DNA of 63,404 nt, the filler included, from Hausera hauseri (lineage: Eukaryota): assembly GCA_046269625.1 (NCBI GenBank). It is 12 parts of 12 records of this genome, joined end to end, with 100 filler letters (N's around TTAATTAATTAA, not from the genome) between each part and the next. Parts side by side here need not be neighbours in the genome. Positions count along the whole stretch, not along the records: positions 29,967 to 39,087 come from JBJURY010457689.1; 11 more parts are not named here. One strand, written 5' to 3'. The position numbers and the translations under genes were made by a program. The notes beneath the pieces are model-generated. The model did not search any database and was not told where the DNA came from. It saw only the letters and a list, made by a program, of their open reading frames with translations. Position 1 is the first letter of the stretch, and each line of letters starts with the position of its first letter. Below are positions 8,291 to 52,369 of this stretch, in pieces.

Positions 8291-8769
8291 TATGTTTTTG
8301 CCTCTTTTTACATGGATGTAAACTGCTTGCTTTTATAGACTATAGTACCGATTAATCATCTGTAACGTCTGGAATCCGAAATCCCTAAGCATTTATCCGA
8401 AACGTCACATACACGAAATTGCTTGACCTGTAATGACCAGTAGGCAGCACTGGTTTGGAGAACTTTACCCACCTCTCAAGAATATTTTTGTGAATGTAAT
8501 TACGGCATGTACGTTTGTACACCTACACGGCTGGTCACCCTTGTCAGTGGTTTATTTCTTAATTTCGACACGGGAAAATGAACGAGTCGGTAGTAGTATA
8601 TGGTGGGATANNNNNNNNNNNNNNNNNNNNNNNNNNNNNNNNNNNNNNNNNNNNTTAATTAATTAANNNNNNNNNNNNNNNNNNNNNNNNNNNNNNNNNN
8701 NNNNNNNNNNAAAGAGATGATGATGAAACACTGAGAATAACAATTGGCATCTCAGGTGGGACACTCTCG

Positions 8770-12600: not shown

Positions 12601-13963
12601 ATCGTCTAAATGAATTGAATAATCAGAAGCGAAAATTGGACGACTTTAAAATACCAGATAAGGAAAAGTAATTAACCATAACGTGAAGCTTATCTTTATA
12701 CTTCTTTTCATTAAGAATTATCAGCCGATTGAATAAAGTCATAGAAAAAATGAACGACTTAAAATCAAAATATGGTCAGAAAGAATCAGCTTTGAATGAA
12801 GAGTTAGAGTTTGCACAATTCAAAGAAAAAGCTGATGAGATCAACGAATGGGTCGACGACAAACTTATAGCAATTCACGATGACAATTACAAAGAGCTGT
12901 ATAATTTACCGGAGAAGCTGAAAAAACACAAGGCACTCGAGGCGGAAGTAAAGGCAAATTATCCGGTTTTGGAGGAAATCAACAAAAAAGGCCAGAAATT
13001 GATTACTGAAAATCATCCTCGGAAAGTTGAAGTTAAATTGATTCTTGACGGTGTAAATGATCGTTGGAAAAAACTAAATTTCGGTACGGATGATAAAGAG
13101 AAAAGGTATCAACAGGCTCAGGAGGAATGTCAGTTGAACGAGGAAGTCACCGAGTTGTTGGAAATGTTAGAAGCAAACGAGAATTTGTTAAAATCCGGAA
13201 AATTGGGAGATGATCTTCGAACAGCGAAAGTGTTGCTCGGAAAACATAATGAATTGGAAGGTGAATTGGACGGCATGAAAGCTAAATTGGATCAGCTGCA
13301 AAAGAGGGCCAATAAAATGGCGAAAGATGGCCATTTCGATTCTGATCGAATATTAGATGCCGTCGATAAGTGGTTTCGAGAAAAGGAGGATTTGGCTGCT
13401 GCAAATGCAATTGGAACCGACTTGAGTCATTGTCAGTCTCTTCAGTCTGAGTTGGATGAACCTGTTGATGGAAAAAAGGTGGACAATGACAGAATTAATT
13501 ACATAATTAAAACAACCGAAAAATTACTGAAGCAGAAAACTATTAGTCCGAATGAAGCAAACAATGTTAAATCCAGAAGCAGTACGATTGAAAATCGTTG
13601 GAATCGATTGAAGCTAGGTCTTGATAAATATCGAAAGGCCTTCAATGAAGCCCATAAGATGCACAAATATTATGCTGAATTAAGTGTACTCAGAGATCAG
13701 ATAAAAGATCGATTGAAAATGGTAAAATCGAAAGACCTCGGGAGCGATATTGATTCTGTTGAGAAACTTAAAAAGAAAGAAGAATCTATCGAAAGGGAGA
13801 TATCAGTTCTGAAAGAAAAGTTTGAGAACCTCAAAAGCCACGATACATTTGGGGAAAATTTTGATGAAACGCACAAGAACCGAAAAAAGACATCCTTGGG
13901 AATGTTAACGGCTCTCTTCAGAGCCACAATTATTGATTTTAATGAGGCTACGGAACCTCTTGA
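9596..13963 (+). CDS. Beta-heavy spectrin (karst/SPTBN5-like), partial; spectrin repeats plus SH3; frameshift near 12010 and intron 12668-12715
   Basis: Beta-type repeats ENYHD...YGKHL..EDLLEKH; SH3 at about 11339-11510 (NNDWWLV..GYAPANFL); LAGASSIDLFNKT; DDNYKELYNLPEKLKKH; joins ORFs 9596-12025, 12066-12671 and 12729 onward. Confidence 0.88.
10334..10745 (+). CDS. Ribophorin II/SWP1-like segment embedded in frame within the spectrin ORF
   Basis: Signal-peptide-like MDLWLIIFRIISSAFSLE, then beta-rich VDESKQIILNFSL...YDINF...GVYKLSITLRD; clearly not a spectrin repeat. Confidence 0.4.
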
Positions 13964-14063
13964 NNNNNNNNNNNNNNNNNNNNNNNNNNNNNNNNNNNNN
14001 NNNNNNNTTAATTAATTAANNNNNNNNNNNNNNNNNNNNNNNNNNNNNNNNNNNNNNNNNNNN

Positions 14064-18805: not shown

Positions 18806-21800
18806 GATTTTTATGAGGTGCACAAGCATCATCTTGGGACGTTTACGCGGTCGAAGATGATGGTTGTGCATTGCCCACGTACCCGCGATACTGTAGTAAT
18901 AGAGTGCATGACGTTGATGGCTGCCAAAGTGTAATGGATCAGTACTATGGCGCCACAGCTGTGCACAGTAAACGGGCCTAAGTTTGTCCTGGTTGCTGTT
19001 CTATAGTTGATGAAATCAACGATGAATAATTTTATAATCTACACAAGGGCCACTTAAACCAGTTTAAGCGGTCGAAAAAACAACCAGTTATGGACTCAAC
19101 CAGCAGCAGCAACCCCTCAATAACCAGTAGGATACGTCAGGCCTCAGCATGTCATGGAGACTTAATCAGAAACAGTACCGAGCAACAGCATCAAAAAGAA
19201 CAACAAGAACAACAACAATAACAGGAGCAACATGATTTCAATCTGCCCAATATTGGATTCAAGTACGACTTAAACAGATTGTACGTGGACATAAAAGCGA
19301 ACATGTCGGCGAAAATAACAACAATAACGCAATCGAGACATGTTCCGCAAAATTTGCGCAACCAGTTGGAATCAGAAGTGGGGAAATTCCAACACCAACA
19401 CTGCAAAGTTCAATATTATGCACTTGCACAATTTGAAAACGTTGAAGGTGAGAGGAAACAATTGTACCTGTCACATCGAGCTGTACCATATGCCAATGAT
19501 TTTATTGTCGACGTAAGCGAAAAGCTCGAGGAGAAAATCACCAACTACACGGAAAAGGGTAGTGGATGACGAATTATATGAATTGTCACCCTCGGCTTTA
19601 TCATAAAACGTCGAGTGACATAATATATTTGTCTGGACGATCATTCATACCGACAACTGCAGCTCTGAAGCAGTCTCTGGCGGTAGTTAATGTAAAAAAT
19701 ACTAACGATAAATACTGTTTTCTTTACAGTATTCTGGCGGTATTGAAATATGACGAAGTGAACAGACATAGTGCACCTCGTCCAAAACAGTATCAGAAAT
19801 ATTTTTCTGAATTGGATTTCGATGAAAGCTGGATGCCGATGAAATTGAAATTCATTCTGGCTTTTGAACGGCGTAATCCGACACTGACAATCAACGTGTT
19901 CCGGTACAATACAATCGTAGAAATACTGGCGGATGAAGAAATGTACAAAAATCCTCATGTGGATATAATCTATCATAGTCGGTACCCAAATGGCCGCTCA
20001 GTAAATTTGTTGCTATTGGAACAAAAAGAAAAGTACCATTGCGTTGCAGTTACAAATCTGGACAGACTACTGAAGATGGCGCATTACCATTTCCTCCAAA
20101 AACAGATACAGTGTAAATGGTGTCCTATATGTCTTCATGGATTCAGGTCGGAAACAATATGGGCGAAACACGTGACTCTGTGCAGACAAAATTCGTCAGA
20201 AACCACAATGAATGTCATGCCTGTCAAACAGGAACTCCGGTTCACTGATTGGTCAAAAACAGATAGTCCGGCGTATGTAGTATATGCCGATATCGAAGCT
20301 ATCTTACCACGGCACAACATAAATGATCAAAAACATGTTCCAGTCGCCGTTGGTATGTTGGTTGTCTCAATAAAAGCTGCAGGTCAACCTCAATATTATG
20401 TTTTCCACGGATGGAATTGTGTACGCGATTTCTTTCAGCAGTTGCAAACCATAGTGGAAACGGAAATAGCACCCTGGTACAGTAGAAATAGTAATAAACC
20501 ATTGAGGTGGACAGATAAAGATGAACGCCTGAAGTTTGCAGTCACAGATGAATGTTACATGTGCCCCAAAATATTACCGTTTGATGCATTGGAACGGCTC
20601 GTACCGGATCACGATCATTTTACCGGTCGATACCTCGGAGCAGAATTTAATTCATGCAATTTGGTAAGGCATGTGCGGCCATTCTTACAAGTGGTATTTT
20701 ATAACTTCAGGGATTATGATTGTCACCATATTTTGAAATGGGCTATAAACGGATTTCCGCACAGGGAACTATCCATAATTCCGACCATGATGGAGAAATA
20801 CCTGTCACTGTCGGCTTGTATAAACCGGTACCAGGTACGCTTCCTTGATTCATTGCAATTTCTCAACGAATTATTGGCAAAGGTGGTAAATCCCTTGCCA
20901 AATGTAACGATAGCACTGATGCAGTTCCCCACACATATTGCGCGTAGCAAATGCATATTCCAGTACTGGAGTAGCATGTAATTCATACAATTTGGCAAGG
21001 CGTGTGCGGCCATTCTTACCGATGGTATTTTATAACTTCATGGGTTATGATTGTCACCATATTTTGAAATGGACACTAAACGGATTTCCCTACTGGGAAC
21101 TATCCATAATTCCGACTACGATAGAGAAATACCTGTCATTATCTGCTCGTATAAACCGGTTCCAGGTACGCTTCCTTGATTCATTGCAATTTCTCAATGA
21201 ATCATTGGCAAAGGTGGTAAATCCCTTGCCAAATGTAACGATAGCACTGATGCAGTTCCCCATACATATTGCATGCAGCAAACGCATATTTCCATATGAC
21301 TTTGCAACATCATATGAGCGACTCCGGACAACAGAGGAATTACCGCCGCGATGGACAGGTATTGCAGAGGATGAATACCGGAAAGCACAGATGTGTTGGA
21401 CATAGCTCGGCTGTAGAAACATGTTGGATTACAAGCTCCAGTATCTTAAACTGGACGTGTACTTATTGACCGATGTGTTCCAGGCGTTTCGAGTGAAAGC
21501 GTTGGCTGAAGATAGGCTGGAGCCCTCAACTTTTATTCCATACCGGGAATGAATTGGGCATCAGCTCTAATGTCACTGGATCGAGACATTGAGCTGCTGC
21601 AAGACCCGGAAATGTACCGGCTGTTTGATTCTGGTATTCGGGGCGGCATGACATTTGTCAACAAGTATCAGGTCCGTGCTACCGATACCACATCACTGCT
21701 GTATATTGATATTAATAACCTGTATGGCTGGGCGCTTTTGCAACCCTTGCCGTACACTTCATTCGAATGGGTTGTCGACAGACAAGATCTGGACGACATA

Positions 21801-22934
21801 ATGGTCAACGTACCACAAGCAGACATGGCAGGCTCAGTCGGATACCTGATGGAAGTCGATCTCGAGGTATCATATGAGCTACATGACGTTTTGGACGATT
21901 TAACGGTCGCACCATTTAACAAATGTCCGCCAGGCTCAAAAGTGAAGAAACTGTTCATGATGCATGAACCGAAGCTGAATTACGTGGTCCATTGGCCTCT
22001 GCTAAAGTTCTACATGCAGCTCGGTGTACGCGTCACACATCTGCATCGTGCAATCCGATTTGCTCATACTCCCATATTCAAGACGTACATAGATAGAAAT
22101 TCATAGAAAAGAGCCACAGCTTGTACAAAGTTCGAAAAGGACTACTACAAGCTGAAAAACAATTTTCTGTACAGAAAGACAGTGGAGAATCTGAAAAATC
22201 GGCTTAATGTACGCCTATGCAATAGCGAAAAGCAGTTGGTCACGTACACGAGTAAGGCGCAGTTTCGTTGGTCAATGCGCATTGCCGATATATTGGTTTC
22301 GTTGCTATTAAATAGAGAAGAAGTCGTTCTGGACCGGCCAAGTTACATCGGACAAGTAATATTGGACCTGAACAAGTTGCGGATGTATGAGCTACAGTAT
22401 CGCGATTTGGCACGTTACCGGCAAAAGTTTGATGGCTGTGACAATAGTATAATTGCTGGTAACACAGACAGTTTTTTGTGCGGCTGAAAAAAGTCAATCG
22501 CGAACAGCTACTGCAGCAAATGCAGTCAGATGGATTACTGGACACGCCCAACTATCCACTGGATCATCCGTTCTACAGCAGCGCAATCAACAACAAAATC
22601 GGTTGCTTCAAGGATGAAAGTGAAGGTCGGGTTCAGTATCGGGAATGGATATTTCTACGGCCAAAATGTTAGTTTTTTAACTGACGGTGGACCGAAAATG
22701 CGCACCAAAGGAGTTCATTTGGCCCAGACGGAAATAAACCACGGTGATTATCGCAGTATTTATGAAAAAGAAGGATAACAAAAGGCTGTTGTGTCACAAA
22801 CGATCATCCGATCGATTGAGCACCAGCTGTATACGATGACCAATACAAAAGTCGCTTTATCATGCAATGATGATATGCGTAAGTGGGTGGAACGAAATAA
22901 GAATTGGACGTACGGACATTGACGTTTGGAATAA
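18806..22934 (+). pseudogene. pPolB, near full length, frameshifted
   Basis: YTEKGSGW; VVNVKN..KYCFLYSIL; ExoI VYADIE; DHDHFTGRYLG; ExoII FYNFRDYDCH; YLKLDV; YIDINNLYG; KLKNNFLY; motif C AGNTDSF; FKDE; TYGH. Confidence 0.95.
20631..21294 (+). repeat. Tandem duplication of about 332 bp within pPolB
   Basis: RPFL.VVFYNF..YDCHHILKW...RFLDSLQFLNE.LAKVVNPLPNVTIALMQFP occurs twice. Confidence 0.95.
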
Positions 22935-23186
22935 AACACGCACGCATGAATTCGGTGCAGACAGATCACATAACTGTGACTATTCATTGTGATCTGTTTG
23001 TCTTGTATAAATAATGTATATTATTCGGTGTTTTTGCCTTTTGTTTTATTATCATTTAATTTATCTATTTAACTTAATGTGACGAGGAACAATATGAAAA
23101 ACAAACAAAATCAATAAAATTTATTAATCATCATAAGCTAAAATCAAAAACAAAGTAAGTCAAATCAGTGTAAACTTTCCAAGCTT

Positions 23187-23465
23187 TCATTTTGGTGATT
23201 TAACGCCGTGCAGATCCTTGTATCTTTCCAAATTCATTATTAGATGACATATAGCTCCTTTCGGTGGCAAAACTGCTTTAACTGCTGCTACTGTCTCTCC
23301 GCCATGTGAACTGACAATTTTCGCCACATTTCCTTTGAGAAAAATCGACGATGTATCTCGGCTATCGTTGTTCAACGCTAAACCACTGTAAACTTTTCTA
23401 ATTGTGTCTTCCATCGTATCCACATCATCGTTGCTGATTTTTTTCACCAATAGATCATATTTCAC
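23187..23465 (-). pseudogene. Uncharacterised Polinton accessory protein (putative SSB paralogue 2)
   Basis: Homologous to 35116-35478 (KY.LLVK.I...D.DT.E.T..KV...L.L.N..RDTSS.FL.GN.AKIVS). Confidence 0.7.
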
Positions 23466-23824
23466 CGCTTTGATTTTGACAGTTTGTGTACATACATAAA
23501 CTGACAGTCTCGTACTTTGTCCATTATTTTTTCTTTCAAGTTCTTTAATTTACAGCGTACCTTTTCAATAGTCTTAAAGTAATTTGTATCGTACAATCGG
23601 TGAATGTACATTTGATTTAATGCAATAATTAGATTTTCTATAGAGCTGCAATCTGTTGCCGTTGCTGTCGTCAATGCTATTGACGCTAAATCTTCTTTAA
23701 ATCCAAGATTACCTGTTGCTGTCGCAACCAGCTCACTATCAAGTACTTTCCACCATCATACCCAGTCTAGAATTGATAATCCATCAAAATTTTGCAACTG
23801 CTTCAATTGATTAACTATTTCCAT
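23462..23824 (-). pseudogene. Uncharacterised Polinton accessory protein
   Basis: MEIVNQLKQLQNFDGL matches MEIVNQLNQLQNFNGL at 34551. Confidence 0.6.
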
Positions 23825-23934
23825 GATGAGTAATATTATTTCCTACCCGTATTTATAGTTTTGGAATTATTCAACTGACCAATACGGCGTAACTTATTTA
23901 CGGAAAGAAAAAATAACAGAGAAATACATTATTC

Positions 23935-24427
23935 ATTTGCAAGAACTATAGTCAAAACAAAGCTGTAGACATTTTTAGTAAGCACAATGTGGTCAATGAT
24001 CGCGATACGGATATCGGATATTGTTAGATACCATCGTCAGCTAGTTGTTTGATGTTGATTTTGAATACATCGTCATTCTCAACTCGAGAAACTGTAAATG
24101 AAGTTGTGTAAAATTTTGCCTGTCAATTTGACCTTTAATGTAAAATATTGTATTTTCTATGTCAAAACGATTACAAATCTTTTCCATAATGCACATCGCA
24201 CAGAAAATTGAATTGCCTTCATGACAATGAAGTCCATGACGACATCGAAAGAGAAATCCGTTTGTAATTTTTGCTTTTCCGTCAGGTCATTCCACACAAT
24301 ACCGGGCTTCAATATGTACACAAGAGGTTGGAAAATTTTATGGACGTCCATAATGCATAATTCCTTTATTATGTACGGGCATTATCATCTTGGAAATCTT
24401 GAATATCTATAAATCCTGTCGCTATTA
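23935..24427 (-). pseudogene. DEDD/RNase H-fold nuclease-like protein with C-terminal Cys/His cluster
   Basis: GFIDIQDF...IIKELCIMDV...VYILKP; ends YPYRDH.PHCAY; orthologue of 33967. Confidence 0.6.
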
Positions 24428-24489
24428 CTTATCATGTACAAAATCATTTTTTGTTTATAACGCAAACAAAACAACTAAGTATTATTATT

Positions 24490-24980
24490 ATTATTATCAT
24501 CACAATAATTAAATATAGGTGGTTTTGTCCATATCACCAAAGCCAAATTCTTTGCGTTCATTTTGTGTTGTTTTCGATTCATTAACGCAAAACCGTCCAC
24601 AATGTTCCGGTGACATTACACTGAATTCTGCCTCTTTAAAGCGAAGAAAAAGACTTGTGCGATTGCAGTGTCTTTCGAAAACGCTTACGGTTCACCGGAT
24701 TAGTTTTTCAGCAACATTTTAATTTCATCACGAAAATTTGAATCAGTGACGCGGCCCACAACCGTCAGTCCGAGCTTTGCCAGTCCGCTTTTGGATAAAC
24801 GTTGGCCGTAATAACCCGATGGAATCGCCAGTCAAATCCCAATCGTTATGCCTTTGATTTTGCTGTCCAGAATTGTATTGACATTGGAAACCACATCGTA
24901 ACCTGCACTGTTTGATGTAACACGTCTCGGTACAAAGGCATTTTCGTCTGTTAAGACAATCTTTACATCATTCATTATCA
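24490..24980 (-). pseudogene. dut: dUTPase, frameshifted
   Basis: PRRVTSNSAGYDV; PSGYYGQRLSKSGLA; TDSNFRDEI; IAQV; RKEFGFG. Confidence 0.9.
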
Positions 24981-25068
24981 TTATTTTTATACAAATACTA
25001 AAATTACACGTATATTTATACTCGTTAATTGGGTTGATGAAAGAAGAAGAAGAACGGTAAAACAAAAT

Positions 25069-25443
25069 TTATTGATAATTAAAATGTGCTTCAGCTACAC
25101 GCCAAATCGGGATTTTGATACCGACTTTTTCCTTGTATCCTTGCAATTCAATATTCAGTTGACACTTTAAACCACCACCACCATCATCATCACTATCGGG
25201 TACATGAGACATTTCGCTACTGATAAAATCAAACAATTTCGTTTTCTGTATCGGTAAATCGACAGACTGCTGTTTCACGGTTGTTTCGTTTAACTTTAAA
25301 TCCACGTTTGATTGATGCAGCGCATCAGAAAGTTTATCCAAATTTTCACCCGAAAGCCGTTTTGCACGATAGCTGTACTTGAGTGCACATAGAGACACGG
25401 GATCATTCAATGAAATCAGTATGGGCGTTTGCAGAAAATGCAT
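25069..25443 (-). CDS. Uncharacterised Polinton accessory protein (putative SSB paralogue 1)
   Basis: HFLQTP...LKYSY...KCQLNIELQGYK...IPIWRV; degraded orthologue at about 32990-33345. Confidence 0.6.
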   Translation of the reverse strand: MHFLQTPILISLNDPVSLCALKYSYRAKRLSGENLDKLSDALHQSNVDLKLNETTVKQQSVDLPIQKTKLFDFISSEMSHVPDSDDDGGGGLKCQLNIELQGYKEKVGIKIPIWRVAEAHFNYQ

Positions 25444-25837
25444 TTCATATTTGCGAAAAATTCGTTTCTGTAAAAATATCTGTGTTTGGCGCGCCGACGG
25501 TTTTGATTTTCATTTACGTATTTCAATCATTCATTTCGCCTTTTTAATGTCAATCTTGCTGCTGCTGCTGATGTCGATTTTTGAGCAAGTTCGTGCTTCG
25601 ATTCCAGACAATTGCTCGGTTTTTCTAATTGTTGGACAGGTTCCAGCAGTTTGATATTAGAATTGTCCTTTTTGTAGCCAAACAACCACGACCAATCTGA
25701 ACTTTTATCATTGGCATCATTAAGTAGAATCGTTTTGNNNNNNNNNNNNNNNNNNNNNNNNNNNNNNNNNNNNNNNNNNNNTTAATTAATTAANNNNNNN
25801 NNNNNNNNNNNNNNNNNNNNNNNNNNNNNNNNNNNNN

Positions 25838-26404: not shown

Positions 26405-28356
26405 TTAAATTTTTTTCTTTGTCTTCTTTACTGAGGGTTTGTTCTCATCAATACTATTATCATTGTCACCATTTTTGTTTTTATTTTTCTGTTTCCATTC
26501 AGCATCCTTTTTTATCAAAAAGCAAATGGCTATGGATGGAATCAGTGCATAAATAATTTTCCAGGTACACCCAACAGCTTGTTTGATACCATATTCCTTG
26601 GTTACCATAGTCAAAATTGCTTTTATAAAGGCAAAAGCGTAATAAAATCCCAGCCATCCTGAATTAAACTGACCGAACTACATGTACCATCCCTATGCGG
26701 TTGCAAATATGTTGCAAATATGAGCGATACGCTTAGCATAATTGGGTCCCATTAAATTTTTTCAATTAGCTCTACCGGTATGTTCAGACAACACCTTCAT
26801 GGCCATCTCCGTTAACACATTTTTGCCTTTGTTGCGGGAACATCATCATTCTCCTATGATTTTCCATATCCTGTTGTGAATATACACCCATCTTGACTAA
26901 GTCCGTTAGTGGTTTATATGTTTGATCTGTTTTCGAATTGATTAAGCTGATCCTTCTGGATGAGATAATCTGTTCTTTGTCAGGCATTCGTATCCAATAG
27001 TCGTTACTCAACCTAAATGTTGGAGACATCGTATACGTACAATTTTGATGTACAAGTGGCTTTTCCATAGGATCTAACAATATTTTAGTAATAGGTTGTA
27101 AAAAGCGTGGCTTTTCCTTATACCAAACAGGTAGTTCCATAGTACATTCTGTAATCGGTCTTAGGTTAACAGCTACTCTCGCACATTCAAAGGTTACGAG
27201 AGCTTCACCCATTGTTCTTGCAAATTTCCCTTCCGCGTCAGGTGATTTGGCTGGGTCTTTTATTGTACCATCCGTTATTGCTGACAAGTATATTTGATTT
27301 ATGATTATTTCCCTATTCAACTTGCAGTCATTTAATATTATTTCACTATACATTGCATAGATATTTTCTTGTTGGAAGTGATAGATAAAGTCAATTTTAT
27401 TGTCAAAATAAAAAATGTAGTTTTACTTCTGATTTATCTATGCTTCTTTTCGCTTCGGTTATTCTAGTTGTTGATAAGAATATGCCTTTATAATTAGTTC
27501 TATATATTACTTAATTACATTTTTTTGTATCAACTACTATTTTGAATCTCATCTCTTCACTTGCGTCTGCTGAGTATACTATAGTTGGTGTTTCGATTGT
27601 ATCCGATACTTGGTCTAATAGACTTTTAGATATTTCTTCATTATATATTTTTCCTTTTGTTTTATTGAACTTCACACTTCGTAACAAAGCTAACTGACAC
27701 TTATCCCTGTCGACTTCGTATTACATGATCGACTCACCAGTTTCACATTCTTTATTATAATAATCGCATTCGGGGAATGTCATAATTTTTCCCGATGATA
27801 ACTCAAAACAGCATCATATTTCATTAACTCAACTTGATAATCCTCAATAGCTACAACATTATCGACGATTTCACCATTAATATTATATGATTCACCTTTA
27901 CAATATCCCGTTTTGTCGATAGTTCCAGCCACAAAAATTCTCTTATTTATAATTTTTCCTTTTTGAGCTTTGAGTCGAATATTTCCGATATTTATTTGTT
28001 TTGTTACAAAGGCTTCTATACACATTCGCTTACTTATCAAAAGTGGTTCGAACGGAGTAGTTGGTTCAACTACAGTCGAATTTCGGTACCAGTATCCACA
28101 GATAAAATGAAAATAATTTTTTCGAACGAAACATTCTCTAACCTTGGTTTTCGCAAATTCTGATTCCTGATACACATAATATTCTTTTTCTGACATTGTA
28201 GTTAGTGACGCTGGATTAGCGAATGGACATTTTTCTAAATCTAATAAGAAATATGTTGGACCTTCCTTGGCTTAGCTGCAGTCATAAGCAATAATTGAAA
28301 GTGTTTTTGGCATCAGACTAAACAGAAGAAGTATGGGTATAACTTTGGTTAGCCAT
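26405..28356 (-). pseudogene. Chuvirus-like envelope glycoprotein (element E1)
   Basis: IIAYDCS...LLDLEKC; FICG; GYCKGESY; DCKLNR; GKFARTMGEAL..FEC...C..ELPVWY...FLQPITKIL; C-terminal TM region. Confidence 0.85.
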
Positions 28357-29966: not shown

Positions 29967-30735
29967 TGAAATTCGGAAAACCTCATCGCTCCAGTTCTGA
30001 TTGAAATTCTTAATGAATGGTGTCGTACTCAGCTTTGAAATACGTACATAATCACCGATTTTATACTTGGGATGTTTAGTTGGTAGTCGTTGTGGTCAGT
30101 TTTGGTAATACCACATGTCCAGATCATCGATTACGTCAACCGGTCATAATCCATTGATGCCACGATGTGTTGAATGATTGTATGCATGAATAATACCCGG
30201 CAGTACATCTACCCAGAGTTTGTTGCCTTGCTTCGTAAAAAATTTGTTTCGGCGACCGCGCAATGTTCGATTAAATCTTTCAACGAGTGCAGCCTTGTAT
30301 TAGGAAAACAGCAAACCGTTTCAAGACCGCTGCAACGTGAGCGTTGTAGAATTTCTTACCCAAATCCGTTTGTAAATGCTTCGGCTGTTGTTGTTGTATC
30401 AATATTTGAACAGCGTTGGTAAACTCTTCACCGGATTTAGATTTCACAGCAATTGCACGTGCAAAACGACTAAACACATCAACGCACATCAGCACATACC
30501 CATACGCATCGTTGATGCTTGCGTACGGAACCATTTCCATCAGGTATATTTGCTATACATTATTTACACCGACAGAGCGGTATGTACGAGTTGGAAACCG
30601 CCTTCATATCGGTTTGTTTAGGCTGTATGCTAACCGTTTCCCGAGCCAACGTTGGGTCTGTTGCCGAGTCTGTTTGACAGTCTTTGCCAGTATACCAGAC
30701 GGGATGACGCGGATCGAACAACACGTCGTCCATCG
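29967..30735 (-). pseudogene. Polinton retroviral-like (rve) integrase
   Basis: YSLNKP..RRFPTR; YVLMCVDVFSRFA; LQTDLGKKFYN; KYKIGDYVRIS...NWSDEVF. Confidence 0.92.
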
Positions 30736-30868
30736 TTGCCGTCGGTGTCGATTATATCGTTTTTATTACAATTAGAAATTAGAACAAAACGTAAATGAAA
30801 GATTCGGTAAACTGGGGCACAATATGAAAACCATGCACCCATATCGCTGAATTATCACATGCTTACCA

Positions 30869-31252
30869 TCATTGTTTATAATATGCTGCAGAACCAATGA
30901 ATCCACCCAATAATGACGTGACAATCGATAGAATTGTACCAAGGAATCCGCCGTCTTGCTTGTACATGACCTCTCGTTTCAGTCGTTTACTACGAGCGTT
31001 GGCAAGGCCAATGAGTCGTTTTCGATACTTTATTAAATTCCGTTTTGCACTACCAATGTCAACGTGACCCACAACAATATTGTACAAAACTTCCATCAAA
31101 TCGTGCACAACAAATTGCGAGAATGATCGCAGCATGTTTCGCTCATGTCTCGTAGATGCCTTAAGCAAAGCAATAAAGTACGTCTGACAACGTTTGGATC
31201 GCTTTTTTGGACGTATTGACGCTGAGACGTAGTTGTTTATAACCGTTTCCAC
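30869..31252 (-). CDS. Small basic Polinton protein with QxGGFL motif and amphipathic tail (adenovirus pX-like)
   Basis: EVLYNIVVGHV...KYRKRLIGLA...KQDGGFLGTILSIVTSLLG. Confidence 0.75.
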   Translation of the reverse strand: METVINNYVSASIRPKKRSKRCQTYFIALLKASTRHERNMLRSFSQFVVHDLMEVLYNIVVGHVDIGSAKRNLIKYRKRLIGLANARSKRLKREVMYKQDGGFLGTILSIVTSLLGGFIGSAAYYKQ

Positions 31253-31398
31253 TGTGACGGTAATTTGCGTCTAGATGCTGTTCGAAGCACAGAATTAATT
31301 AATCGCTTGACTGTAGCGGTTCGTTTTAATACACGTTTCTTACCGGACACCCTCTTGGTAGGTTTACGTTTAACAATTGTTTTTCGGAAATTCTTCAT
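31237..31398 (-). CDS. Small K/R-rich protein, possible DNA-condensing core protein
   Basis: MKNFRKTIVKRKPTKRVSGKKRVLKR...WKRL directly after the ATPase. Confidence 0.5.
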   Translation of the reverse strand: MKNFRKTIVKRKPTKRVSGKKRVLKRTATVKRLINSVLRTASRRKLPSQWKRL

Positions 31399-31399
31399 T

Positions 31400-32010
31400 T
31401 TATCGCAATCGTGTCGTCGATTTTCGAATTTGTTTACAGACGTGTACACCTTTCTGATTGAAAATATCTGTTCGTACACGCATGTCATCGGGACACTGTT
31501 GTGCAAAGTCAATAAACAGATAGCCATGCGGTTTGTGCGTAGCATTATGATATGCGTCTATTAAGTAGGCTCGGTTGAGGAAATGCTTGTCGTGCAACAT
31601 AATCAATGATAGTCTGATCACGGGGATTTATGAAGAACACTAAGTAGTGTTCGTTTAAATTTCTTGTTCGATGCTACCCGCCCTGATGTAACATGTTTTG
31701 CGTAATGAAAATAACCGTCACACCAGGGTGTCGTGCAATCTTCGTGAACAGGTTGTTGAAGTCGGTTTGACAATAACGTCACCGATGCGTAATCATTCAG
31801 ACCAGTTCTCATCAAACCCATCAATTGCGGTTATCAATTTCAGTTTACAAAATTCCTGTTGCCAGTAAATGTGATTTAACAGCGCCGATTGCAATATGTC
31901 ACGGTAGTTCGGAAGCAATTTGCAAAGTGCGTTTTGCCACTTCCACTAGGGCCTATAATCTGGAAAATGGCACTATTCTGCAGCTTCATGTCGTTCGTGA
32001 TGCATTTCTC
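31400..32010 (-). pseudogene. A32/FtsK-like packaging ATPase, frameshifted
   Basis: Walker A IIGPSGSGKT (about 31930-31960); C-terminal DAY..AT.KPHGYLFID...DDMRVRTDIF. Confidence 0.9.
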
Positions 32011-32066
32011 ATATTTTGTTTATAATCACACAAATAGGTGCAACATGAACACTATTTCAATCAATT

Positions 32067-32530
32067 ATGATAGCCAATATCAACTACCACGGAATTATTG
32101 AGTGCATTAATGCACTGCCCTTTAATCAATGGAAGCCGAGGCATTATGTCCGCCAATGTCCACCGGATATTAAATGCATTATATTTCAATCGGGAAAGTG
32201 TCGCATTATGGGTTGTCGAAAACGAATCACAAATGACAGACATCTACCATTCGGAATTGTCATTGACCAAATTCAATCAATAACAGTAACGAATCAGTTA
32301 CATCGCTCACCTCCACAACCACCACAATCAATTAATCTACACAAATTAGCAATGTGTACCGAATGTATTTATGAGCTCGAACTGTTTCCTGCACTGCGAA
32401 TAACATTATTCCGCCCGCTTTGTGTCAATGTGTTTATTAGTGGAAAAATTGTATTGGGGATTCGGTCAATCAACCATGAGACGACTATTGATCAAATTAA
32501 ACACCACATAAGTGTTTTACTGAATCAAAG
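32067..32530 (+). CDS. Divergent TATA-binding-protein-like protein (ORF reads through to 32792)
   Basis: Two TBP half-repeats: IIFQSGKCRIMG and IQSI...INL..LA...YELELFPAL...VFISGKIVLG. Confidence 0.8.
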
Positions 32531-32573
32531 TAAATGGACTATAAATATCACTCATATTCGCTCAAACATTACT

Positions 32574-32934
32574 ATGATGGAAAACGATGATAAAACGACT
32601 CTGCTCAATAATACTACTGACAATGACGAAAGTACACATTGGTCATGGCTGTTTGGTGACAAGAATGACAATGACAACTGTCTGGAAACGAAACCTGTCC
32701 AACAATTAGTAAAACCGATATTAAAACGGCAAGGGAGAATTATTGGTGGTAAAAGAATGTCAGACAAAGATAGCGATAATACTCAATGGTGATGATGATA
32801 AGAGTTACGATTTGTCACGAGTGCTTGGTAGCAACAATTCTAATGTCAACTGTCTGGAACCGAAAACAGAACCTGTCCAACAATTAGAAAAGCCTAAATT
32901 AAAACGACAAGCGCGAATGACTAATGGAATATAG
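32574..32934 (+). pseudogene. Low-complexity accessory ORF with internal duplication
   Basis: NCLE...PVQQL.KP.LKRQ.R twice; WSWLFG also at about 25680-25700 on the minus strand of copy C. Confidence 0.5.
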
Positions 32935-33420
32935 AAACAAAAATTAAAGCCCACGCATCAAACACCGACATTTTTACAAACGCGACGTTTTCGAAAGTAT
33001 GAAATGCATAATCTGCAAACACTCGTACAAATTACGTTGAATGACCCTGTGTTATTGACCACACCCACGTACAGTTATCGTGTATAGCAGCTATCGACTG
33101 AAAATTTTGCGAAACTTGGTGATGCTATAAGTCAATTAAACATGGACTTAAAGTTGAACGAAAAAGCCTTAGAACAGCAATATGTCGTTTTACCGGCAGC
33201 AAAATCTAAACTGATTGATTTTATCGGTCGTGAAATGTCTAGTGCCCGATGATTTAAAATGTCGACTCAACACTGAATTGCACGGATACAAAAAGTACGG
33301 TGTCAAAAGCCCGATTTGGCGTTTGTCTGAAGCACTTGATTACCAATAAATGTTGTTGCTGTTTTAAGTTTCTTCAACAATGAGTATAAATATACATGTG
33401 TAATGGGCTTTTTAATAATA

Positions 33421-33890
33421 ATGATAACGAATGACGTAAATATTATTTTGACGAATAAAAGTTCTACTGTACCGAGACGTGTTACGGCAAGCAGTGCGAG
33501 ATACGTGTTTTCAAATGTCAATGCGACAAATTCGGACAGCACAATCAAATGCATAACGACTGGGATTCGATTGGCAACTCCACACGGTTACTACGGTCAA
33601 CTTTTATCGAAAAGCGAACTGGCAAAGCTCGGACTAACGGTTGTGGGTAGTGGTTTCATTGATTCAGACTTTCGTGGTGAAATTAAGGTGTTGCTAAAAA
33701 ACCAATCCAGGAAACCGTATGCTTTTTTGAAAAAGCAGTGCAATCGTACAAATCGTTTTTCATCGCTGTGAAGAGGTGGAATTCAGTGTAATGTCACCGG
33801 AACAATGGGAATTGTTTTGCATCAATGAATCGACACGAAATAAACGCAAAGAATTTGGCTTTGGTGATATGGGCAAAACCACCTATGTTT
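33421..33890 (+). pseudogene. dut: dUTPase, frameshifted
   Basis: PHGYYGQLLSKSELA; GFIDSDFRGEIKVLL.N; RKEFGFG. Confidence 0.92.
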
Positions 33891-33966
33891 AATGATTGTG
33901 ATAATAATATTAGTTAATTGTTTTGCTTGTATTATAAACAAAAAATGATTTTGTACATGATAAGTA

Positions 33967-34455
33967 ATGGCGACAGGATTTATAAATATTGAAGCTTTCC
34001 ATGATGATAATGCCCGGTACATAATAAAGGAATTATGCGTTATAGACGTCGATAACATTTTCAAACCGCTTGTGTACGTATTCAAGCCTTCTGTTATGTG
34101 GAATCAGTTGACAGAAAAGGCGAAAATTACCAATGGATATCTCATACGATGTTGTCATGGACTTTATCGGGACGAAGGTAATTAAACGTTTTGCGTATCA
34201 TGTATCATGCTAGACATTTGTGATCGTTCCGACATTGAAAATACAATATTTTGTATTAAAGATCAAATTGACAAGCAAAAGTTTGCGCAACTACATTCAC
34301 ACTTTTCCGAGTTGCGAATGGCGACGTATTCAATATCAAACATCCGGCTGGCTATGGTAGGTGATAATATTAGATGTCCGTATCTGAATCATTGACCGCA
34401 TTGTGCTTACAAAAATGTCTACGGCTTTGTATTAACTATGTTTCATGCAAATAAA
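33967..34455 (+). pseudogene. DEDD/RNase H-fold nuclease-like protein
   Basis: GFINIEAF...YIIKELC...VFKP...NGYL...HGL...G; CPYLNH.PHCA. Confidence 0.6.
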
Positions 34456-34550
34456 TTTATTTATTTGTTTCTTTCTTACTGTAAATAAGGTCCGCCGTAT
34501 TGACCAGTTGAATAGTTCAAAACTATAAATACAAATAGGTAATAATAATC

Positions 34551-34800
34551 ATGGAAATAGTTAATCAATTAAATCAATTGCAAAATTTTAATGGATTATT
34601 AATTCCAGACTTGGTACAATGGTGGCAAGTACATGATAATGATTTAATTGCGAGAGCAGCAGGAGCATTTACTATGAATGACTTTTAATACGGACAGCAT
34701 CACAAGTGTTATTGACCATTTGTCTACTGTTTACAATGAAAGCAAATAGATTGGAACAAATTTGATCACTGGCTTCATTGACCGTTTGTGTATTGTTTAC
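34551..34800 (+). pseudogene. Uncharacterised accessory protein
   Basis: Orthologue of 23462-23824; TATA box about 25 nt upstream. Confidence 0.5.
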
Positions 34801-35103
34801 AATGACAGAAAGCTAATTGGTACATACTTGATCCATTGTTTACAACGAAAGTAAACCGATTTGAACAAATTTGGTATAAATATGGATGTCTTTTCATTTC
34901 ACTTTGCCTCTAAAATATCTGCACAACAAAAGAACATCATTTGAATAAACAGCAACAACAACAACAATACCGACAATTCAATTGTGAAAAGTTGCAGTAA
35001 GTCCATTTCATTTTGACCTTTTCTCCTTAATGAGTCCAAGTACGGCCCGTGTTCCCTCAGACAGTCCAGAGCGTACAACGTGTTCAATCTACACTTCCTG
35101 TAA

Positions 35104-35478
35104 ACTCCCATTCTAGTGCAATTACCAACACCGATCAAAATGAAGCAGGTAAAATATAGCCTGTTGGTAAAGAGAATCGGCGACAGTGACTTGGATACAT
35201 TGGAGGAAACGATGAAGAAAGTGGACAATGATTTGATGTTGTCGAATAATATTCGGGACACATCCTCGCTTTTCCTTAATGGCAATATGGCAAAAATTGT
35301 GAGTGCAAGTGGACAAACAGCATTTTTGCCAACGGAAAGGGTAAAAGGATACCTTACAATGAAGCTAAAAGGATATAAGGAACTGAGCGGTATTAAATCG
35401 CCAATGTGGAAGTTTGGGAAGTTTGCCCTAATGAATAGACTTGACCTTCTCTTAGTTATTCGTGTTGTTAGTTTATGA
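35104..35478 (+). CDS. Uncharacterised accessory protein (putative SSB paralogue 2)
   Basis: TPILVQLPTP...VKYSLLVKRI...LTMKLKGYK..GIKSPMWKF. Confidence 0.65.
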   Translation, partial: TPILVQLPTPIKMKQVKYSLLVKRIGDSDLDTLEETMKKVDNDLMLSNNIRDTSSLFLNGNMAKIVSASGQTAFLPTERVKGYLTMKLKGYKELSGIKSPMWKFGKFALMNRLDLLLVIRVVSL

Positions 35479-35769
35479 TTCATAATAAAATTTATTTGAC
35501 TTTTTGGTGTTGTTTTAGATTAATATCAAAAAGTATTTGAGTTTACAAGTAATGCGATTTTTCAATTTATTTTCGATAACCCAACTTAAGCCCCATTTCC
35601 TTGTTATAAAACAGAAGACAAAAACTAGTGTACAAATACCTTACTGATAATATATAACAAAACATGTACAGCAGATGAATGTAAAATAAAGATCACAAAT
35701 GTCAATGATCTAGCTGGACTGAATTGCATGTTTGCACTGAACTGTTTGTGAACACTAAACGTGTGTTAT

Positions 35770-47524: not shown

Positions 47525-49894
47525 AACAACAAAAACAACAGCAACTTTAACAACCATAACAGCATCTACAACAAAAATAACAACAAAACAACAACAATAT
47601 CCACAAAAGAACAACAAGGACAACAACAAGAACATCAATAACAACAAAAACAACAACAAAATCAACAAAATCAATATAAACAACAACACTACCAAGAACA
47701 AAAAAAACAAAATAACAACAAGAAGAACAACATCAACAACAGCAACAACAAGAAGAACTGAAAAACAACAACAGCAGCAACAAGAACAAGAACAAAAACG
47801 TCAAGAGCAACAATAAAACAACAACAAAGCAACATCAACAACATGAAGAAGGACAACAACATCAACAAAAAGGACCACAAAAACAAGAAAAAGTACAACA
47901 AAAACAACTACAACAACAACAAGAACAGCAAAACATAGAAACAAAACAATAAAAAGAAGAACAACAAGAACAATAAGAAGAAAAACAACAACAAGATGAA
48001 GAACAACAACAACAACAACAGCAAAAAATAACAAAAATAACAACAACAACAACAACAAGATTCACACCAACAACAACAACAGCAACAGCATTAACAACAA
48101 GAAGAACAGCAAAACATAGAAACAAAAAAAATAAAAAGAAGAACAACAAGAACAATAAGAAGAANNNNNNNNNNNNNNNNNNNNNNNNNNNNNNNNNNNN
48201 NNNNNNNNNNNNNNNNNNNNNNNNNNNNNNNNNNNNNNNNNNNNNNNNNNNNNNNNNNNNNNNNNNNNNNNNNNNNNNNNNNNNNNNNNNNNNNNNACAA
48301 AAACGAAAGCAACAAAAACAACGACAACATCAATAACAACAACAACAACAGTAATAAAACCATGAACAATAACAACAACAACAACAGCAACAAGGACAAC
48401 AGCAACAACAACAACAACAATAACAACATTAACAACAACAACCACGACAACAACATCAACAACAAAAACAAAGACAACAACAGCAGACACATCAACAACA
48501 TGAAGAATGACAACAACAACAAATAAAACAATAAAATGAACAAAAAAATAACAAAAATCAACTACAACAACAACAAGAACAGCAACAGAAATAGAAAAAA
48601 GAAGGAGAAAAAGAAGAAGAAGAACAACAATAATAAGAAATCAACAACAAATTGAAGAACAACAACGACAACAGCAACAGCTACAAAAGCAACAACAACA
48701 ACAGCTTTAGCAACAACAACAACAACAACAACAACCAAAATAACAAAAATAAGAGCAACAAAAACAACAACATTATCAACAACAACGACAACAAAAACAG
48801 CAACAACAACGACAACAAAAAGTACTTCAATAACAACAACANNNNNNNNNNNNNNNNNNNNNNNNNNNNNNNNNNNNNNNNNNNNNNNNNNNNNNNNNNN
48901 NNNNNNNNNNNNNNNNNNNNNNNNNNNNNNNNNNNNNNNNNNNNNNNNNNNNNNNNNNNNNNNNNNNNNNNNNNNNNNNNNNNNNNNNNNCAAGAACTTC
49001 AACAACAACAGCAACAACAGCAACAGCAACAACATCAAAAAGAGCACAAAAAACAAAAATAACAACAACAACAACAAAAACAGCAACAACAAAAAAATCA
49101 ACAACAATAACAAAAACAACAACAACAACGACAACTGCAACAACAAGAATACCAACAACAACGAAAACTACAACAATAAAAACAACAACAACAACAGCAA
49201 AAAGAACAACAACAACAATTGCGACAACAACAGCAATAACTACAACAACAATAACAACAACAACAAAAACAACAGCAACAGCAACAACAAGAAGAAAAAC
49301 AACAACAACAAGAACAACAGCAACAAGAAATAAAACTATAAAAACAACAGCAACAACAACAACATGAAAAGAACAAGAACAACAACAATTACAACAACAA
49401 CAGCAACAACAACGAAAACAACGGCAACAACAGCAACAAAAACACTAACAACAACAACAACAAAAATAACAATTACAACAACGAAAACAACAACAGCAAG
49501 AAAAACAACAAGAATAACCACAAAAACAACACACAACAACAACAACAACGTCAACAAGAACAACAGCAGCATAAACAGAAAAAAAAAGGACAGCAACGAC
49601 TATAAATGCAACAACAACAACAACAACAATAACAACAAAAACAAAAACAACAAAAACAATAAAAACTACAACAACAAAAACAAAAACATCAACAACTACA
49701 ACAATAACAATTACAACAACAACAACATCGACAACAACACCAACAACAACAACAACAATAAGAGTAACAACAAAAACAACAACAAAAACAACATCGACAA
49801 CAACAACAAGAACGACATCAACAATAACAACAACAATAATAACAACGATAACAACATCAACAAAACAGAAACAACAACAAGAACAACAACAATA
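45195..49894. repeat. Degenerate (AAC)n/(AAG)n low-complexity satellite with gaps
   Basis: Directly visible; strongly A/C-biased on the + strand. Confidence 0.97.
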
Positions 49895-49994: not shown

Positions 49995-51212
49995 GTTTTG
50001 ATATATGACCGGCAATTCTTGAATACAGCGTTTTTCTTCCACGTTTAAAGATACTTCCCGTTTTCCGCATTCGTAGGTCAGCAAGATTTCTCCGGTCACT
50101 CTTCCAAAAATGCCTTCTTTCATTGAAATTACTGGCGATGCTAGTTCTGGATTTGCTTATATTAAGGCTAGCTTGGTCCTCATGATTTCCATATCCAATC
50201 TACAATCATTCGCAATCACTTTGTTATATAATTCTGCTAGTCCAATTTGTTCTTTATAATAGAAGAAATCATCTCTATTATTTAAATAGTCTTCTATTCT
50301 TACGTCTTGTGTTTCCAAAGCAAATGTAGTTATTGCGGCTTTCGCCACAAAAATGCTTCATAATTGGTGGCGTACATTACTACGTTGCATTGAGAGAGCA
50401 TTTGCTTCTTAATGATTTTCAATCCGTGGTCCTCGGATATCACTATCGTAGGTGTAGATTGTTCAGCCACGTCCTTTCTTATCGTAGCATTGTTGTCGCT
50501 CGTGTCCACATATCTTTTTCCCGTGGATTTGTTAAAATTTATCTCTTTTATTTTAATAAAGTTACAATCATTAGTAGGTGGTGGAGTCCAAATGACTATC
50601 GAGTTCCTGAAAGTACAGGCACCATCTTGGATGTGACACTTCTGATTTTCGGTATATGTTTTGTGACACTATTGAACATCACTTTTGGTTCTTCATCTCT
50701 ATCTCATAGAAATCGACCACTACTATTCCTGATTCTCTTCCTTTTCCTGTATCGTACTCACCTCCTTTACAATATCCTGTGTGCATATCCAGTTTTACAA
50801 TTGCTATCTTATATACTCAAATTATTTTTCCCGGTTGGGCTTCTAACTCCATTCCATCCCATCTTAATCTTCCGGTTTCTTTAGCTTGCTTACACTGTTG
50901 TCGATCTAAATCCATAGGGATCAGTGGGGTCGTCAGTTTTACTATCGACGAATGTCTATGCATGTTTCCGCAGTGGAAAATGCTCCGCGAACTTCGCAGC
51001 ATGCACTCTATTCCGTCTATTGCAATTAACTTGCGCTGCTTATATAAAAAGTACTTTTTCTCAATCGTTACTAACTTGTGAGGTCGGGCGTCTTCGCATA
51101 ATTCCAAATCCATTAAGGAATATCTTTGACCTACCTTAAATTTATCGCAGTCGTATACCGTGATTGCGCATAGTCGTCCTAATAGCATTATAAGCGTTAT
51201 CAGTTTAATCAT
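49995..51212 (-). pseudogene. Chuvirus-like envelope glycoprotein (element E2), frameshifted, truncated by linker
   Basis: Signal peptide; ITVYDC...YSLMDLELC; FHCGNMHRHSS; GYCKGGEY; NDCRL; GIFGRVTGEI...EC...CIQELPVIY. Confidence 0.87.
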
Positions 51213-51325
51213 TAAGTTTGATTCACTATCTCGCGCTGAGTTAGATGGTATTAAATTTCTTACTACATTTTCAATTCGAGTGGTCAGCCTGTTTCCATCT
51301 TCGTCATCGAATAGCCTCGACCAAT

Positions 51326-52369
51326 TTATTTCCTAGCAGCTTTTCTGATCAATCCAATGGTTCTATTGAATTCATTTTCTTTCAGAATGTTTGCTTTGAT
51401 TGCCAAGTACAATATTACTTTCCTTAATTTATCCTTAGAATTCTCTACCATAATTTTCTCAATTAGAACTTCGTCAGGTAAGTTGCCTTTGTTCATTTTC
51501 AACCAAAATGTCCTCATTATCTTTTCCGCATTATATATTGCATTTTCTTTTTCATCTAACATCTCGTTCCTTGGTCCCGAATAGTTCACTATTTTGATAA
51601 TGTATCCCAGCAACTCGTTTAACTCTTCGCTATCGGAGTTAATCCCGGGAATGGATAATTGCATTAGTTCTCGTATCAAGGCTTCACTCCGGTCACTATC
51701 ATCTCTTATTTTTCTCGGCCTTCCAACTGGTCGTTTTTGTTTCGGCGCAGTTGGTATTTCTTCGCTCATCGATACTATATTCTTATCATATCGTTTCTTA
51801 TCTTCCTCACTCTGGAGGTAGTCAAAATACATGACAGGGTCTCTGACTCCCATAATGCGTCCTACGCAGTGTTCATCTCTTGCTTTTCTCGTAGCCTCAT
51901 CTTTTGTCTGTTCGTCGGTAATTATAGCCACTATTCGATTTGATTCCTCCGGAATAATTCCAACATCTATTAATAGCTCAGATTCGTCCAGTATTCTACC
52001 TCGGAAATATAATCGGTAATTTACTTCATCTTTTCCACCGTTTCGTACTATCCATTGTTTTACTGCTCTAACCGATGTCATCGTTGTGCATTCAGTTTCT
52101 TTTCCTTTCATCCATTCAGCAGATAATTTTACCTTAACCGTCGTCTCGGGTTTAGCTTTTAAGAAATCAGCGTATTTCTTTATCAGTAATCTGGGTACTG
52201 AGCTATAAACGGTATTTTCGCTTGATAGTTTTGTCAATGTAGGGATCAATTGTCTCAATTTGCTCCCCGTCATGTTGACGTTAATCTGCTCAATTAATTC
52301 TCTCTCGGCTAATGCGGGATTCAATATCATTTCCACATTAAATCGTCGATCGATTTGATGGGTATCCAT
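51326..52369 (-). CDS. Intact ORF with ubiquitin-like domain and AT-hook
   Basis: TSVRAVKQWI..NGG....YRLYFRGRILDESELLIDVGI (UBL); KRPVGRPRK (AT-hook). Confidence 0.75.
   Translation of the reverse strand: MDTHQIDRRFNVEMILNPALAERELIEQINVNMTGSKLRQLIPTLTKLSSENTVYSSVPRLLIKKYADFLKAKPETTVKVKLSAEWMKGKETECTTMTSVRAVKQWIVRNGGKDEVNYRLYFRGRILDESELLIDVGIIPEESNRIVAIITDEQTKDEATRKARDEHCVGRIMGVRDPVMYFDYLQSEEDKKRYDKNIVSMSEEIPTAPKQKRPVGRPRKIRDDSDRSEALIRELMQLSIPGINSDSEELNELLGYIIKIVNYSGPRNEMLDEKENAIYNAEKIMRTFWLKMNKGNLPDEVLIEKIMVENSKDKLRKVILYLAIKANILKENEFNRTIGLIRKAARK

Follow-up and report, generated by a model that had tools for sequence, protein, structure and literature searches.

A minimal TBP-like protein encoded by Maverick/Polinton elements and a candidate promoter word before their late-type genes

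We found that a gene in the Hausera hauseri window, by which we mean the whole analyzed stretch of 63,404 nucleotides, encodes a small TBP-like protein belonging to a family carried by Maverick/Polinton elements. The earlier note on this DNA had proposed a mobile-element-encoded minimal TBP-like protein, a proposal borne out by fold, family, tree, selection and gene context. From the sequences, it is likely that the family protein recognizes TATAAACA, a promoter word of the elements' own that stands before packaging and capsid genes. Our results favor a model in which an early, element-encoded TBP turns on late genes together with host TFIIB and RNA polymerase II (Pol II), in the manner of the herpesvirus vTBP; we give this reading a probability of roughly 0.6.

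The window consists of 3–9 kb pieces joined by 100-base spacers, each made up of 44 N, 12 letters and 44 N, and neighborhood across spacers is unproven. The TBP-like gene lies within one gap-free piece, 29967–39087, where an uninterrupted frame on the + strand runs from the ATG at 32067 to 32792 and encodes 241 aa. It divides into two parts:

32067..32534, + strand: TBP-like coding region, 156 aa, with an N-lobe lacking helices H1 and H2 and a full C-lobe bearing an E-x-E-x-F stirrup (Pfam, AlphaFold2 model, Foldseek, VIA, family alignment)
32535..32792, + strand: C-terminal run-on of 85 aa into duplicated sequence downstream (stretches D11 and D12), not found in relatives (ORF, relatives' lengths, depth)

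The motifs that the earlier note had read as both TBP repeat signatures (IFQSGK..IMG, YELELFPAL and VFISGKIVLG) all fall within this frame, and residues 1–156 match the Pfam TBP family (PF00352) in two stretches, with 38 bits and an E-value of 1.5e-9 (the curated cut-off is 22.9 bits), so the reading was sound. Its size of about 150 aa applies to the TBP part and not to the ORF as a whole. It was right that there is no N-terminal extension, the TBP fold beginning at the start of the ORF, and that the gene is intronless. The closest relatives (23 matches among 30 candidates) are 109–166 aa long, most of them 144–160 aa, and the summed depth of related contigs in sequencing run X1 falls from 97,809 to 58 just after 32534. 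Because the relatives are shorter and the depth drops at this point, the 85-aa tail is a trait of the window copy or of a small subfamily.

An AlphaFold2 model of the window protein, built on a 24-row alignment, has a pLDDT of 90.1 and a pTM of 0.77 and takes the form of a TBP saddle. Residues 1–60 make up five strands with no helix of four residues or more, in line with the shortened first repeat described earlier, and the second lobe is complete with both helices. Foldseek returned 44 PDB matches at E ≤ 0.001, the ranked rows all being TBP chains. The top 38 rows from VIA were likewise TBP-containing entries, led by human TBP (7egb_P; Z 12.1, rmsd 2.8, 144 aligned residues), with the first unrelated fold at Z 6.6. 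By model confidence and VIA score, the protein has the two-lobed saddle that marks the TBP superfamily. The Pfam TBP HMM and structure prediction, both suggested as checks by the earlier note, were positive, and an absence of the saddle fold did not appear. Viral TBP-like proteins match the family model more weakly, the named BFVD matches being at 7–16% identity.

The element that surrounds the gene is a dead Maverick/Polinton. A protein-primed DNA polymerase B (pPolB), an rve integrase and a packaging ATPase occur together in the piece, all of them broken, alongside several smaller genes:

29967..30672, − strand: rve integrase (Pfam), broken, in 2 frames with 5 stops, cut by the contig end
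30890..31192, − strand: small basic core protein, pX-like; a relative has a weak adenovirus pX-like match (E 0.017, below the cut-off)
31430..31989, − strand: A32/FtsK-like packaging ATPase, broken, in 3 pieces and 3 frames with an internal stop; ATG at 31989; intact relatives match Pox_A32
32989..33171, + strand: piece of an SSB-like gene, broken, of a kind that often neighbors the TBP-like gene; weak fold likeness to T7 gp2.5-type SSBs
33403..33771, + strand: partial dUTPase (E 1.1e-11)
33964..34407, + strand: conserved ORF of ~160 aa with an N-terminal D-x-E motif and 2 stops; no Pfam match
35074..35412, + strand: second SSB-like piece, 1 stop
35769..38024, − strand: pPolB, broken, in 5 pieces with 8 stops

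We take the D-x-E ORF to be exonuclease-like. Capsid proteins and protease gave no match in the window, where the contig ends in the integrase and the ends of the element do not lie in one assembled contig; they are present in relatives (L013, L021, L026, L029 and L032). The ATGs of the TBP-like gene and the ATPase are divergent and 77 bp apart, so the head-to-head arrangement that had been pointed out holds in the window, but it is not a family trait: among 13 ATPase-bearing loci, the ATPase is co-oriented with the TBP-like gene in 11, divergent with genes between in 2, and directly head-to-head in none. Contigs that align to the stretch at a likeness of at least 85% number 54,642 in run X1 and 2,751 in run X2, numbers that would suit a very abundant repeat family. 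Two sequencing runs were listed as containing the sequence, with no RNA run among them, a listing that has no bearing on expression. Many related contigs turn to unlike sequence immediately before the ATPase start at 31989 (30 in X1, 6 in X2), so other subfamilies of those genomes have a different arrangement near this point. A second copy of the same Maverick family, ~80% identical and in the opposite orientation, lies at 18806–25737 and holds pPolB, the SSB-like gene and the D-x-E ORF with TATAAACA at 24452–24459. More pPolB pieces are found at 3–4364 and 40507–40815.

Decay of the window copy of the TBP-like gene appears to be neutral. Its sequence differs from that of the family at positions 104 and 124 and by a one-residue gap in the last strand, all within two of the motifs quoted in the earlier note, and it carries a 7-residue insertion after residue 79. 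Compared with other genomic copies, 34 of the 40 differences listed (out of 77) lie in the TBP region, distributed 11/11/12 over the codon positions; because they are so even, the window copy is probably nonfunctional. In a quick tree its branch length is 0.26, against 0.06 and 0.09 for its two nearest relatives. This copy, lying in a broken element, is probably a fossil, and the biology discussed here is that of the family.

An exhaustive search for that family gave 151 clusters at 50% identity, and those among the matches listed all carry motifs particular to the family and different from the ones in cellular TBP. Its proteins are mostly 145–200 aa long with the TBP fold from residue 1. Among 53 metagenome loci, 51 are real; L052 and L053 were dropped as chance matches, and a second motif scan for relatives gave four loci, all unrelated. 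An ATPase, core, integrase, penton-like, capsid, protease or pPolB gene is held by 17 of the 51 loci, and at least one gene of the shared set by 44, the remaining 7 being contigs of ≤2.1 kb. Relatives carry pPolB, the rve integrase, the A32-like ATPase, an adenovirus-type protease, a double-jelly-roll capsid, and penton-like and pX-like genes; genes commonly found close to the TBP-like gene are the ATPase (13 loci) and the SSB-like gene (20 loci). No close relative was found in IMG/VR in 31 candidate stretches from the TBP-like alignment or in 37 from the capsid, nor was a close Maverick lacking the TBP-like gene found there; two distant ATPase loci are without it.

Inside Mavericks the family is under purifying selection. 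The dN/dS comparison across copies that had been suggested gave a median of 0.24 for 25 genes, from 52 usable pairs of 300 (dS 0.05–1.5) that are not independent of one another. Across five nearly identical pairs, 6 changes are silent and 17 replacing, the pattern expected once an element has inserted. Quick trees were built from 76 rows (42 family, 22 eukaryote-type and 12 archaeal TBPs), the eukaryote-type rows being picked by likeness to one viral-contig TBP and divergent giant-virus TBPs being absent. With this sampling, the family lies on a separate long branch in the tree that the earlier note had called for: a branch with an SH-aLRT of 100 separates the 42 family rows from the eukaryote-type and archaeal TBPs. 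The helix-less subclade that includes the window copy has 24 rows and a support of 95. Despite the family's own branch with support 100, a grouping with three TBP rows, two of them animal, was not rejected (AU p 0.43), and an ancient origin from animal TBP is compatible with the tree.

This latter result, together with the intronless gene and the neutral drift of the window copy, could be taken to mean that the gene is a recent neutral retrocopy of host TBP, or even a chance match, but we regard this as hardly credible. Identity is 20–25% to cellular TBP and 39–73% to element-borne relatives, and the separate long branch and the dN/dS of ~0.24 also speak against it. Family and tree exclude a "recent" retrocopy, and one confined to a single element, as the earlier note had envisaged, did not appear (151 clusters, own branch, Maverick neighbors).

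Which features of cellular TBP have been kept and which lost was surveyed in 130 of 193 family rows (135–235 aa, both motifs present) aligned with 34 eukaryote-type and 23 archaeal TBPs. The N-lobe asparagine (N4) is kept, and three intercalating phenylalanines (F40, F107 and F123) are retained in 98–100% of the 130 rows; the column of the fourth, in the N-lobe stirrup, is proline in 88–94% of rows in the sequence alignment. Relative to cellular TBP, the family has V → R46 (98–100%), T → M48 (100%), N → S/T71, V → T/S73, I → R111 (94% in the short subclade), L → N121 (98–100%) and V → C119. From TBP–TATA structures, we take these columns to face DNA, and the DNA face of the family is accordingly predicted to be polar. 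The stirrup glutamates E103 and E105 are E in 91–100% of the 130 rows and otherwise D; this E-x-E pair of the C-lobe is the TFIIB contact (PMC7221094).

The N-lobe has been pared down in part of the family. In the short subclade, the span of helix H2 (S5 to S1′) is ~19–21 residues, compared with 32–33 in TBPs, and that of H1 is ~18–21, compared with 27; the spans are short in 85 of the 130 rows and longer in 45, with distant members keeping the longer ones. The window's subclade is without both N-lobe helices, the surface where TFIIA, Mot1 and TAF1 dock; the docking patch for these factors and Brf1/2 lies largely on H2 of the N-lobe (PMC7221094). Measured against a canonical cellular TBP, the TFIIB-contact glutamates are present, and the full set of four phenylalanines and H1 and H2 in both lobes are not. 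One family member of 219 aa, P0213, has an apparently duplicated C-lobe.

The putative promoters of the elements fall into two classes by sequence, with an ATAAAC word before late-type genes and an ordinary TATA box before the TBP gene. In the window piece, the word occurs at these sites:

30873..30880, − strand: TATAAACA before a small MG-starting ORF that precedes the integrase
31234..31241, − strand: TATAAACA before the pX-like core gene
32017..32024, − strand: TATAAACA 35 nt upstream of the ATPase ATG and within the 77-bp divergent spacer
33933..33940, + strand: TATAAACA before the conserved ~160-aa D-x-E ORF

The form TTATAAACAA stands before the window ATPase, which has no co-oriented gene upstream, and before three other genes, and the whole-window count of the pattern is 25 against 17 expected, only a mild enrichment. 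We counted motifs on the sense strand in the 60 nt before each ATG, after near-duplicate loci had been removed by hand (leaving 10 of 13 ATPases, 6 of 8 core genes, 4 of 5 capsids and 22 of 49 TBP genes). Among these loci, which are related to one another, ATAAAC was present before all 10 ATPase and all 6 core genes, 3 of 4 capsid genes and 4 of 5 D-x-E ORFs, and before 1 of 22 TBP genes. Shuffled means were 0.2–1.2 for ATAAAC (0.3–0.6 for the ATPase, core, capsid, D-x-E and penton classes), and antisense ATAAAC was found 0 times in the ATPase, core, capsid, D-x-E, penton-like and GSGW classes. The zero before SSB-like genes (0/12) is a weak test, the ATGs used there lying after an intron. A counterpoint to our reading is that the motif is uneven by class within 60 nt, with 3/6 for penton-like genes, 1/4 for GSGW and 0/6 for integrase, the last a weak test given the small ORF that precedes the integrase; further ATAAAC sites exist upstream of the 60-nt windows in these three classes. 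The TBP genes have TATAWAWR in 10 of 22 cases (shuffled 2.4), many at 35–39 nt, and a strict TATA is missing in 12 of 22.

Across 26 sites, ATAAAC is preceded by T in 19 and followed by A in 23 and, one position further on, by A in 21. The motif lies 31–51 nt before the ATPase, core and capsid genes of relatives, and its distance to the ATG is 31–38 nt in 17 of 20 sites; its distance to the upstream stop ranges from −13 to +364. That stop is within −13 to +22 nt of the motif in 9 of 19 sites, and the motif may have a second, poly(A)-type role. ATAAAC inside coding sequence is retained despite a residue change (YKQ to HKR). Within penton-like coding sequence, TATAAACA is found exactly 98 nt before the next ATG (L021 6573 and 7586, L029 3818, L032 5480); L013 lacks it at that place and has one 32 nt before that next ATG.

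Two apparent ORFs near the TBP-like gene are in fact one SSB-like gene split by a GT-AG intron of 43–46 nt in 7 of 7 loci (L002, L006, L009, L012, L013, L016 and L022; for example, L013 1745–1787), the second exon having a weak SSB-like fold. Because these introns restore one frame in every case, they point to nuclear transcription by Pol II. The commonest neighbor of the TBP-like gene was considered as a TFIIB-like partner and rejected: its folds are beta-rich, with weak matches (E ≥ 0.08) to T7 gp2.5-type SSBs. IL-17A matches that turned up in a separate search (E ≥ 0.08) were taken as chance. Pfam found no TFIIB-like gene in 49 neighbor ORFs (29 + 20), a scan that a very divergent one could escape and that included two loci covering 12.6 of 12.9 kb and 12.8 of 14.2 kb of their contigs.

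These observations are consistent with a model in which a single protein would act as an early-to-late switch. Host TBP would transcribe the TBP-like gene early from its ordinary TATA box, and the product would then bind TATAAACA via its altered saddle, in preference to TATAAAAG. The C of the motif lies at the 3′ end of a TATA box, which is contacted by the altered N-lobe. The C-lobe stirrup would recruit host TFIIB and Pol II to TATAAACA promoters, and the protein, without the N-lobe helix surface, would escape control by Mot1, TAF1, TFIIA and Brf1, so that the packaging and capsid genes could then be expressed. The earlier note had suggested a viral transcription factor or a dominant-negative decoy. 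In favor of the former are a motif at promoter position that is restricted to late-type genes, the polar DNA face and the retained TFIIB glutamates, with binding and expression as predictions; the decoy is less likely. The fullest version of the idea, a Maverick lineage with a herpesvirus-like early/late cascade run by one 150-aa TBP of saddle plus TFIIB stirrup that has acquired specificity for TATAAACA and ignores the regulators of host TBP, we advance tentatively, at somewhat short of even odds. One consideration that runs against the model is that loss of one phenylalanine and both helices could weaken DNA binding.

Other roles would account for some of the same features. A protein that kept the TFIIB glutamates and had shed the activator-binding N-lobe helices might shut off the host, by binding its TFIIB or TATA boxes without forming a working complex, and host factors would then be the readers of TATAAACA. 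ATAAACA also fits the Forkhead consensus RYAAAYA. Host TBP itself may read the word, a cellular TBP having been crystallized on a C(−25) TATA variant (PDB 1qn3). Still, such a decoy would have no need of invariant new polar residues across the DNA face. The motif is as far from the ATG as the canonical TATA of the TBP gene is, and which of the two words is present depends on gene class. Shutting off host Pol II would moreover hurt an element that, from its introns, apparently depends on it. We consider this explanation unlikely. It is rather less probable that the protein stands in for host TBP at every AT-rich promoter of the element with no new specificity, as a Mot1/NC2-resistant factor useful where host TBP is scarce, for example in germ cells. 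Retention of three phenylalanines, N4 and the stirrup would suit this role, as would a motif that still starts with TATAAA and the general loss of the N-lobe signature in viral TBPs (PMC7221094). However, a C at position 7 marks the late-type motif, which is nearly missing before the TBP gene, and most hydrophobic DNA-face columns now hold invariant other residues.

A role outside transcription, in which the saddle would bind or bend the element's DNA during packaging, replication or integration, seems highly improbable. The frequent proximity to ATPase and SSB-like genes is in its favor, and TBP lobes are general binders of double-stranded nucleic acid (PMC7221094), but such a role gives no reason for two TFIIB-contact glutamates to be kept at 91–100%, and the position relative to the ATPase varies.

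Like cellular and archaeal TBPs (PF00352; 7egb_P, 1ytb_A, 2z8u_B), the family has a two-lobed, ten-strand saddle, a complete C-lobe, the E-x-E stirrup, three of the four intercalating phenylalanines and the N-lobe asparagine. It differs from them in its low identity (~20–25%), in the proline at the N-lobe stirrup and in DNA-face positions changed from V/T/I/L to R/M/N/S/T, and the window's subclade differs further in missing both N-lobe helices. TRF2/TLF (TBPL1; row P0257) is another TBP relative without intercalating phenylalanines and one with changed specificity, but it has retained the two helices of the N-lobe, and in the tree its place is among eukaryotic TBPs.

Viral TBPs are already known as a kind. 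The KSHV ORF24 protein is a viral TBP mimic with a polar DNA face that acts at TATTWAA before late genes with host Pol II (PMC12529657). The family shares with the herpesvirus vTBPs (KSHV ORF24, EBV BcRF1, HCMV UL87) the polar face and a variant TATA word before late genes, its function being predicted, and BcRF1 and UL87-type proteins are weak structural matches to the family model. ORF24 is a large, multi-domain protein with five viral partners, all four phenylalanines, no TFIIB glutamates and direct Pol II binding; the family protein has ~150 aa, no identified partner, retained glutamates and the promoter word TATAAACA in place of TATTWAA. The vTBP layout, an N-terminal Pol II-binding domain followed by a C-terminal DNA-binding one, was not seen in the family among the lengths searched (mostly 145–200 aa). 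NCLDV TBPs are also virus-encoded, two-lobed TBP folds, and named ones are among the best BFVD matches. Nearly all of them are accompanied by a viral TFIIB, and conservation of the stirrup glutamate among them is ~40% (PMC7221094), in contrast to glutamates at 91–100% and no TFIIB-like gene among the 49 neighbor ORFs here.

The gene set of the relatives is that of Mavericks/Polintons and adintoviruses (Starrett et al. 2021, PMC8502044). The legend of Fig. 5 of that paper, in a section on non-animal datasets, carries a label that may refer to this family; this figure-legend label is all that we found in print for the element class. The accessible text of Starrett et al. describes neither the family nor its structure or promoter word, and we found no description of the family or motif in the literature searched, Polinton papers included (subscription journals and Repbase lay outside the search).

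Mavericks encode capsids, and particles have not been observed, according to PMC8097293. With subscription journals outside our search, we found nothing on how Maverick virion genes are switched on, and a dedicated factor with a matching promoter word would be a direct handle on their activation. The protein is also a natural test of what a TBP needs, keeping the TFIIB contact and dropping the whole N-lobe regulatory surface. Its opposites are the giant-virus TBPs, which are supplied with a TFIIB of viral origin, and the herpesvirus vTBP, for which TFIIB is bypassed. A TBP of altered specificity that works through the host's TFIIB could serve as an orthogonal transcription tool. Should the model hold, Pol II would have in this protein its smallest orthogonal promoter-recognition factor, and the elements a switch for their capsid genes.

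Several minor observations were made along the way. Accessory genes in relatives include a ubiquitin-conjugating E2 (L021 222–719), a RING finger (L032 1710–2171), a dual-specificity phosphatase (L006 4008–4319), an LRR membrane protein (L024 1918–3330), a C2H2 zinc finger (L045 1513–1911) and a PLA2-like gene (L051 2–361). A near-canonical eukaryote-type TBP lies in a viral contig (L054 1338–1898) and was used as a reference; by reading of its sequence, the adjoining ORF resembles an NCLDV capsid protein. Elsewhere in the window, pieces of a Monjiviricetes fusion glycoprotein family occur at 26784–28271 and 50817–51332, and reverse transcriptase and integrase pieces at 55810–57708, a few kilobases from the latter and across spacers; with the same proviso about spacers, the second glycoprotein piece and these may represent an envelope-carrying LTR retrotransposon. 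Long ORFs at 8659–14015, likewise across spacers, encode an SH3-bearing alpha-spectrin and part of a Foie-gras/TRAPPC11 protein; their introns are few or very short, and they hint at an animal host. (AAC)n arrays occupy 45203–49892.
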